Source: Amphiscolops sp. MND2022
Lineage: Eukaryota
Reading direction: 5' to 3'
NCBI GenBank assembly: GCA_964187785.1
Contig: OZ076409.1
Coordinates: 24,988,001-25,052,000, forward strand
Length of the DNA: 64,000 bases
Position numbers and translations under genes: made by a program. Shown here one piece after another: positions 24,365-24,871 of the stretch (positions are counted from its first letter, which is position 1; every line of letters starts with the position of its first letter). A model generated the notes under the pieces. It ran no database searches. It worked only from the letters and a program-made list of their open reading frames with translations, and was not told the DNA's origin.

Positions 24365-24871
24365 TTACTGTACAAAACGATTTGAATCTAAATCACATAA
24401 TGCTTTATGAACAGCTTGAATTAGATTTAACAAGAGTCTTGCGTTACCTTCTACTAGAACGAGGCAATCTTTGACTCCTACCAAACGAAGGATCTTTTTG
24501 ACGATAGGCGGACAGCAAACTCCGGAAGTAGGCCCGTGGAATCCAGTTCCTTCCGGTGCGGGTTTCAAGTGCACTCTAACACTTCCTCGTATCCCAATTA
24601 CATAGAACGGAATAGTATGAACATTCCTCAATTCCCACGATCCCAGCGCAATATGGAAACGCTGTCGATATGCTTTTCCAGTAGCGCACATGACGGCCCT
24701 CTCCTGTGTTTTCATTATTTTTTGGGCGAATCCAACATCGCCGCTCCCATCACCCACCATGACGACTGCACGCCAACGAATTCTTTGCCCTCTCTGTGTC
24801 TCCGATTTCATTGGTGTCAGTTTCAGCAAAATCTCTTGCATTTCTATCGAGCTGATTCTTTGGTTTCTCAT
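24365..24871 (-). CDS. Polinton cargo: divergent eukaryote-type ribosomal protein uS5 (40S S2) homolog
   Basis: LLKLTP…TQRGQRIRWRAVVMVGDGSGDVG, GSW…HTIP…VIG…GSVRVHLKPAPEGTG, KKILRLVGVKDC…G…LLN…A…A align colinearly with both uS5 domains of RPS2; intronless, intact, inside the TIRs. Confidence 0.9.
   Translation of the reverse strand: MRNQRISSIEMQEILLKLTPMKSETQRGQRIRWRAVVMVGDGSGDVGFAQKIMKTQERAVMCATGKAYRQRFHIALGSWELRNVHTIPFYVIGIRGSVRVHLKPAPEGTGFHGPTSGVCCPPIVKKILRLVGVKDCLVLVEGNARLLLNLIQAVHKALCDLDSNRFVQ

Follow-up and report, generated by a model that had tools for sequence, protein, structure and literature searches.

A divergent uS5-like gene as a standard and exchangeable component of an animal Polinton clade

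Ribosomal proteins are among the most conserved of all proteins, and to our knowledge eukaryotic viruses were long thought to possess no genes for them. Homologs of structural ribosomal proteins (bS21, bL9 and others) are carried by phages, as described in sections of PMC6375957. For viruses of eukaryotes, a paper from 2024 presents eL40 of a giant virus and names it as the earliest known case of a ribosomal protein in a virus of eukaryotes (PMC11499249); uS5 is not mentioned in the text of that paper. The phage homologs and eL40 alike presumably act on host translation. Polinton/Maverick elements (adintovirus-like) are characterized by terminal inverted repeats (TIRs), a 6-bp target-site duplication (TSD), a polymerase (pPolB), an RVE integrase and ATPase-, protease- and capsid-like genes, and they bear host-derived accessory open reading frames (ORFs) at both ends. 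In this study, we analyzed a stretch of 64,000 nucleotides from Amphiscolops sp. MND2022 (GenBank assembly GCA_964187785.1, contig OZ076409.1, positions 24,988,001 to 25,052,000 of the forward strand), hereafter called the window, which contains an element of this type with a gene for a homolog of the ribosomal protein uS5 (RPS2). Positions are those of the window.

The element around this gene measures 23.1 kb, is flanked by 6-bp target duplications and shares with other Polintons the TIRs, pPolB, the RVE integrase and the accessory ORFs at both ends, along with putative ATPase, protease and capsid genes. What distinguishes it is that all clade members examined possess the accessory gene, with a conserved tandem array as its border. 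Compared to the virus-encoded ribosomal proteins mentioned above, the protein concerned is uS5, its carrier is an animal Polinton/Maverick, its divergence from the host version is far larger, and it exists as many mutually divergent, recombining alleles. Canonical uS5/RPS2 and the Polinton version have in common both domains in the same order, the fold (template modeling (TM) score ~0.8 to ribosome-bound chains), a basic core and the GDGxG and PAPxGxG loops; several sibling types also share an N-terminal segment of the eukaryote/archaea type. The Polinton version, on the other hand, is 33-38% identical to the canonical one, lacks its RG-rich N-terminal extension and its C-terminal tail, and resides in a mobile element in multiple, hypervariable copies. 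A search for the term 'ribosomal' in PMC8502044, PMC4028283, PMC11161782 and the 2026 mosaicism preprint gave no hit. No report of a Polinton/Maverick ribosomal protein was found in the full text of open-access papers and bioRxiv; supplements or Repbase-type annotations could hold a mention. An animal Polinton clade that carries a uS5 paralog as a standard gene appears to be new, and it extends known kinds, namely virus-encoded ribosomal protein homologs and Polinton accessory genes.

The initial annotation of the window had proposed that a Polinton encodes here an intact and intronless uS5 homolog of 168 amino acids, about 770 bp inside the right TIR, colinear with both uS5 domains, at roughly one-third identity to RPS2, without the RG-rich N-terminal extension and with some seven additional residues after the PAPxGTG motif. 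Nearly all of this is borne out. The ORF begins with an ATG, which a distance of 766 bp separates from the inner border of the right TIR, and contains no internal stop; TIRs, the 6-bp TSD and domain matches support a Polinton that carries a uS5 homolog. According to Pfam, the Ribosomal_S5 domain, whose fold resembles a double-stranded RNA-binding domain (dsRBD), spans residues 12-73 (35.3 bits, cut-off 27.1), and Ribosomal_S5_C spans residues 96-163 (51.1 bits, cut-off 21.5), i.e. both profiles match above their cut-offs and in the order of canonical uS5. With the first exon of host RPS2, the protein shares 35.8% identity over 134 amino acids; the RG-rich extension is indeed missing, and exactly 7 residues are inserted after the PAPEGTG loop, an insertion which, according to the alignment, is common only to the closest sublineage. 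The absence of introns, on the contrary, holds for the window copy and not for the family: no upstream coding exon for the missing N-terminal segment was found in the window region 24872..25636, whereas several other types contain GT-AG introns.

A sequence search of the PDB with the window protein retrieved 162 distinct chains at E<=0.01, with 4bts_AE at the top (E 7e-23), and the best 60 of them are all cytosolic eukaryotic uS5/RPS2, by name or alignment. The AlphaFold2 model, computed from a 15-row family alignment, reaches a mean predicted local distance difference test (pLDDT) score of 90.6 and a predicted TM (pTM) score of 0.85. In the Foldseek comparison with the PDB, the top 50 hits are ribosome entries throughout, matched at the uS5 chain, as read from the chain labels together with the PDB sequence search; the query TM scores range from 0.76 to 0.83, and the model superposes on ribosome-bound uS5 at TM 0.80-0.83, with a root-mean-square deviation of 1.7 Å over 155 columns for the best hit. 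Very probably, the ORF is a real gene, namely a paralog of eukaryotic cytosolic uS5 that has been cut to the two-domain RNA-binding core, in a Polinton/Maverick lineage.

The genome (1.07 Gb in 1929 contigs) contains many copies of this gene. The window protein yielded 310 candidates; among the best 150, which are those listed, 115 are free of in-frame stops and 35 are interrupted, one of them by the intron of host RPS2. The PF00333 profile yielded 347 candidates, again with the best 150 listed, and the merged lists comprise at least 235 distinct sites, i.e. at least 233 divergent ones and two of canonical host RPS2. For the control uS8 (PF00410), one match from 3 candidates was obtained in the same genome; introns divide the host uS8 gene, of which a single frame covers just one exon. 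The true host RPS2, distinct from the Polinton type, is represented by the two sites on C5 (107.6 bits), which possess the RG-rich start and whose first exon ends at an intron. These two loci, C5:874121-874501 (L031) and C5:66370630-66371034 (L032), share the end of the first exon and are near-identical in sequence; they are either two canonical copies or an assembly duplicate. A further site, L033 (C1:84641302), looks like an isolated canonical-type RPS2 fragment.

The position of the gene is conserved as well. Within the 10-kb contexts of ten diverse members, seven contain a convergent pPolB at a distance of 1.3-3 kb, which is 47-62% identical to the window pPolB. In a sibling context, the DNA is 93% identical from the TIR to the array, the array exceeds 4 kb, and pPolB lies 6.9 kb off; one of the ten contexts sits in a cluster with pPolB 6.8 kb away, and the last represents a deletion derivative of 1.9 kb, bounded by TIRs, in which essentially just the uS5-like gene remains and capsid genes are lacking. 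Seen from the polymerase, 89 pPolB matches were scored (the best of 3586 candidates; 55-100% identical), and 58 of these have a listed uS5-like site at most 12 kb downstream, with a median gap of 2.1 kb and, in 58 out of 58 cases, on the opposite strand. Four of the 31 matches with no such site were checked, and each of the four turned out to have a uS5-like ORF at the predicted location, which in one case is distributed over two frames. Furthermore, a member viewed with 1.5-kb flanks adjoins a Polinton-type array. In total, with L047 and L048 (see below) included, the uS5-like gene occupies the same position in 16 out of 16 elements with examined context, six of which had been picked for their pPolB, and it is present in sibling as well as in deeply diverged copies. 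The gene is a standard, hypervariable and recombining part of a large Polinton clade, which goes beyond the one-copy reading of the initial annotation. In some places, uS5-like ORFs or fragments cluster within a few kb (G000 C7:42172013-42189140, C6:51322380-51330566, C1:83527321-83534407 and C6:34854003-34855508). In one of these clusters the spacing is 2.7 kb, and in one the ORFs alternate with long 84-bp arrays; the clusters may have arisen by tandem duplication of cassettes or may consist of nested elements.

Comparison of closely related elements reveals that the gene is swapped between elements as a cassette. The loci L047 and L048 are ~90% identical to the window in DNA from pPolB through the end of the array (~20800-23871), and similarity resumes at the TIR, at ~80%. 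At the protein level, L047 shares 95% identity with the window in the pPolB part but 31% in the uS5-like protein, which in L047 has 233 amino acids and a Ser-rich N-terminus; the corresponding protein of L048 has 252 amino acids, a Ser-rich tail and the N-terminal segment. Likewise, L041 and L044 share 96.6% identity along pPolB and the array, after which they continue into unrelated cassettes. Because unrelated cassettes adjoin flanks of 90-97% identity, divergence in place is ruled out as their source, and the pattern is most simply explained by recombination in the interval from the array to the TIR. Clustered at 50% identity, 34 unique uS5-like cores fall into 13 clusters. The 84-bp array itself retains 66-83% DNA identity across Polinton lineages, above that of pPolB DNA in some pairs, and in some copies expansion has carried it beyond 4 kb (L042:5747-9991; L045:1692-6722). 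A scan of 22800-25800 with Rfam predicted no family.

Substitution patterns differ between old and young pairs. For ten between-sublineage pairs with 62-76% amino acid identity, the proportions of non-synonymous (pN) and synonymous differences (pS) are 0.15-0.25 and 0.74-0.84, respectively. These Nei-Gojobori counts are approximate, and the pN/pS ratio of at most ~0.2-0.3 is obtained with saturated synonymous sites, which leave no true rate of synonymous substitution (dS). In pairs from young subfamilies the ratio is 0.8-1.2, as expected of copies that decay after insertion, while synonymous and non-synonymous changes between the window copy and its 98% sibling number 4 each, which is too small a sample to be weighed. 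These results indicate purifying selection on the uS5-like gene between lineages and neutral drift in recent copies. The long selection as a viral gene that the initial annotation had supposed agrees with a between-lineage pN far below the saturated pS.

The phylogeny was reconstructed in a quick IQ-TREE run with 63 rows, 28 of which are of the Polinton type. The rows of the Polinton type group with canonical eukaryotic uS5 in a single starred clade, from which archaeal S5 is separate, and the clade of canonical uS5, host included, takes in no Polinton row. In the best tree, 28 out of 28 Polinton-type rows lie on one side of a branch (support only 70), and this topology is compatible with a single ancient capture of uS5. 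The terminal branches of the Polinton rows measure 1-2 substitutions per site, versus 0.05-0.4 for canonical uS5. The N-terminal segment of the eukaryote/archaea type is kept in several types, one of which contains the host-identical motif IKEPEIID, and is lost in the type of the window. Two sequences from long ENA contigs, P0013 and P0014, are placed in the starred clade of the window. Judged by sequence, the family is present in at least one other organism, because the best matches of these two sequences in this genome reach just 45-46% identity. No relatives in public viral or metagenome contigs were confirmed by searches with the single protein or with a closer alignment. The ten closest representative database proteins are nameless, and a profile search of the database returned mainly archaeal S5 and further nameless proteins.

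Relative to host uS5, the RG-rich N-terminal extension and the C-terminal tail are absent from the window protein and from all aligned Polinton types. In some types, a GT-AG intron connects a D/E-rich 5' exon to the rest of the gene, whereas very small ATG exons or Ser-rich tails occur in others. The core is basic, with an isoelectric point of 9.0-11.5 in 14 out of 14 types, and the alignment shows that the GDGxG and PAPxGxG loops as well as K17 and R32 are retained. Ribosomal_S5_C is predicted above cut-off in 14 out of 14 other types; the Ribosomal_S5 N-terminal domain is above cut-off in seven of them, sub-threshold in five and unlisted in two. Passages of PMC10216425 give the N-terminal extension as the reported or predicted site of PDCD2/Tsr4 binding and PRMT3 methylation: PDCD2/Tsr4 docks on the initial ~42 residues of uS5 with an FXXXFG motif, and PRMT3 acts on the RG repeats. 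The same passages locate a nuclear localization signal (NLS) inside the uS5 core and name eS21, uS2, uS8, uS4 and uS3 as neighbors.

The function is more challenging to interpret. We favor, at a probability of roughly 0.35, the reading that the protein is a uS5 mimic directed at the small ribosomal subunit or the translation of the host. Such a mimic would reach the nucleus or nucleolus without the dedicated uS5 chaperone of the host, and on 18S rRNA or the pre-40S particle it would either take up the site of uS5 or contend for it; the handling of mRNA at the entry channel of the ribosome would be altered to the benefit of the element. The acidic or Ser-rich tails, which in several types replace the chaperone-binding RG extension, could shield the basic core, and the hypervariability would mirror a conflict, be it with the host or among elements that reside in the same genome. 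This reading is suggested because both domains and the signature loops stay together and several types keep the N-terminal segment, and because of the internal NLS region, the tails in place of the chaperone site and the precedents of phages and eL40. It could also take the form of 'private' ribosomes, in which the uS5 variant of each element would replace host uS5 in a fraction of the 40S subunits. The variable entry-channel hairpin and the loop insertion would then favor the mRNAs of the element or evade a translational shut-off by the host, and an arms race over a core ribosomal protein would have left its mark in the cassette swaps and in the divergence into at least 13 types. We regard such ribosomes as unlikely; simple replacement in the 40S subunit is disfavored because of the heavy loss of canonical residues.

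This loss belongs to several observations that weigh against a ribosomal target in general. In an alignment of 40-odd canonical uS5 sequences, most of them from animals, 134 core columns show a conservation of at least 90%. The canonical residue persists in 70% or more of 19 Polinton types in only 22 of these columns, chiefly as Gly, Ala, Pro or a hydrophobic residue, along with K17, R32, D41 and T86. The tip of the beta-hairpin, which we take to lie at the mRNA entry channel, is replaced, variable or deleted in many types, and the eukaryotic C-terminal tail is missing in all of them. For a protein that fits the same 40S pocket, lined by uS3, uS4, uS8, uS2 and eS21, the loss of residues is large, and this counts against the mimic. 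Moreover, types that coexist in this genome share 25-45% identity among themselves, whereas the host has one rRNA. Finally, the agreement of the predicted fold with ribosome-bound uS5 may partly mean that AlphaFold recalls the ribosomal conformation from solved ribosomes.

The release of most uS5-specific residues from constraint, while fold and positive charge are kept, would suit the main rival explanation, an extraribosomal RNA binder that blunts RNA-based host defense (RNA interference, PIWI-interacting RNAs or the sensing of double-stranded RNA (dsRNA)). The dsRBD-like N-terminal domain and the basic C-terminal domain would in this case bind structured RNA or dsRNA, e.g. dsRNA from convergent transcription of pPolB and the uS5-like gene, which are convergent in all 58 co-located cases. 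Hypervariable, terminal and swapped genes such as this one are typical of viral counter-defense, and the host is an invertebrate animal. The viral dsRNA-binding suppressors are likewise small, basic proteins of the dsRBD type, which evolve fast and are accessory to replication; here, in contrast, the S5-type N-terminal domain is always coupled to the S5 C-terminal domain, and we know of no precedent for an S5-type domain as silencing suppressor. Since a dsRNA binder needs the N-terminal domain only, the joint retention of the ribosomal domains and loops in 14 out of 14 types disfavors a plain dsRNA binder, and so does the ribosomal N-terminal segment kept in several types. We treat this explanation as possible but doubtful, at a probability just below that of the mimic. 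We give distinctly less credit to a nucleic-acid binder in the element's own cycle, which would condense or chaperone genome or transcripts or form part of the virion core. The protein is strongly basic, and its gene, found in 16 out of 16 elements, resembles a core gene; yet core genes are rarely exchanged for 30%-identical versions beside a 95%-identical polymerase, and the TIR-bounded deletion derivative retains the uS5-like gene but no capsid genes. A role as terminal protein was considered and rejected: the cassette swaps independently of the 95%-identical pPolB, and a section of PMC11161782 reports that Polinton pPolB carries its own terminal-protein domain at the N-terminus.

It is very unlikely that the protein serves as a decoy that titrates host partners of free uS5, such as importins, ZNF277, ubiquitin ligases or assembly factors. 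According to passages of PMC10216425, uS5 has unusually many non-ribosomal partners, and its internal NLS region falls within the core that the Polinton types retain. A decoy for PDCD2 or PRMT3, however, is disfavored because the N-terminal extension, the reported or predicted docking site of PDCD2/Tsr4 and substrate of PRMT3, which are the best-characterized partners, is missing in all Polinton types examined. In addition, surface residues are poorly conserved. Least credible of all is a functionless passenger, i.e. a host gene that was captured, or a retrocopy, which decays while it rides along. The element of the window is dead, the ratio of non-synonymous to synonymous change (dN/dS) is ~0.8-1.2 within young subfamilies, and 35 of the 150 listed matches contain in-frame stops (one being the host intron), all of which a passenger would explain. 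Against it stand the other 115 matches, which are stop-free, the position of the gene, kept over a pPolB divergence down to 55% identity, the pN of 0.15-0.25 beside saturated synonymous sites, the fold predicted at pLDDT 90.6 and the spliceosomal introns maintained in some types. A processed RPS2 retrocopy in particular was rejected, given ~36% identity to host RPS2 in place of near-identity, the fixed position in the element and the introns in sibling types; neither a poly(A) tract nor a flanking duplication was found around the window ORF.

The features of the element are listed in the table below. The TIRs of ~100 nt are 97-98% complementary. The window pPolB is split over at least three ORFs, while the frames of siblings comprise ~1150 amino acids; in Pfam it gives a weak DNA_pol_B_2 match (19.3 bits, below cut-off) and Endonuclease_7. 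An intact sibling pPolB ORF scores 0.94 to Atlas clusters that carry DNA_pol_B_2 and Endonuclease_7, and has no match in Pfam or in the PDB sequence search. For the 439-aa ORF no Pfam match was obtained; one nearby Atlas cluster contains DJR-like_dom in 30% of its members, and the ORF is a candidate capsid gene from this Atlas lead. The protease ORF is interrupted by a repeat-flanked insertion of ~6 kb (10723-16752). With pPolB split and the protease interrupted, the window copy of the Polinton is dead. At the end opposite the uS5-like gene, the left-end ORF (EGF match 22.8 bits, Pfam cut-off 21.5) looks host-derived and growth-factor-like, as judged from its sequence; a piece of it is kept in the deletion derivative L037.

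Table. Position and annotation of the Polinton features in the window.
Feature	Position	Strand	Remarks
Target-site duplication CACGAT	left 2623..2628; right 25737-25742		6 bp
Left terminal inverted repeat	2629..2727		element start = AGTAGTGGGG
Left-end accessory ORF	2900..3262	plus	120 aa; hydrophobic stretch and EGF-like domain
Putative packaging ATPase	5396..6124	plus	weak Pox_A32, 19.3 bits, below cut-off 22.8
RVE-family integrase	6890..7873	plus	rve 45.9 bits, cut-off 32.6
Candidate capsid-like ORF, 439 aa	9069..10388	plus	nearest Atlas clusters eukaryotic, 0.98
Start of putative adenain-like cysteine protease	10385..10759	plus	weak Peptidase_C5, 16.9 bits, cut-off 21.3
pPolB	18425..22870	plus	convergent with uS5-like gene
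84-bp tandem array, 9.6 copies	23049..23854		between pPolB and cassette; inner cassette border
Exchangeable cassette	23872..25624		no DNA similarity to L047/L048 although both flanks match
uS5-like gene	24365..24871	minus	168 aa; S5 dsRBD-like N domain and S5 C domain; without eukaryotic N-/C-terminal extensions
Upstream region of uS5-like gene	24872..25636	minus	TATATA(A) match at 25149-25154; motif match alone
Right terminal inverted repeat	25637..25736		TIR comparison

The insertion in the protease ORF has direct terminal repeats of ~793 bp, which are 96-100% identical across segments, and encodes an ORF of 1170 amino acids (12483-15995) with no Pfam match; a diverged inverted copy of it lies at ~39825-44814 of the window. 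The DNA at the right flank of the Polinton (25738-25973) is a repeat that recurs near the start of the window, at positions 19-261 (85-93%), and, in L040, downstream of a Polinton from another lineage (L040:8160-8304 and 8586-8720), which may mean a preferred insertion target or a local tandem repeat. About 450 bp from the left end of the element, a host exon that encodes a GDT1 domain (divalent cation/proton antiporter) is located at 1631-2179 (plus strand). Reverse-transcriptase ORFs (RVT_1) are found just outside several Polinton right ends (L041:7663-9990, L042:1018-2616 and L040:8817-9878), and retroelements are frequent neighbors of such Polinton insertions.

The Polinton uS5 evolves roughly 5-10 times faster than the host version and represents a natural experiment on the limits of uS5 divergence with the fold kept. 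The architecture of array and cassette offers a marker by which recombination between Polintons can be followed. For genome annotation, caution is advisable: hundreds of ORFs with an 'S5 domain' in such genomes are viral and are not host ribosomal genes. Finally, the gene family is a candidate for a new route by which DNA elements may manipulate translation or RNA defense in invertebrates.

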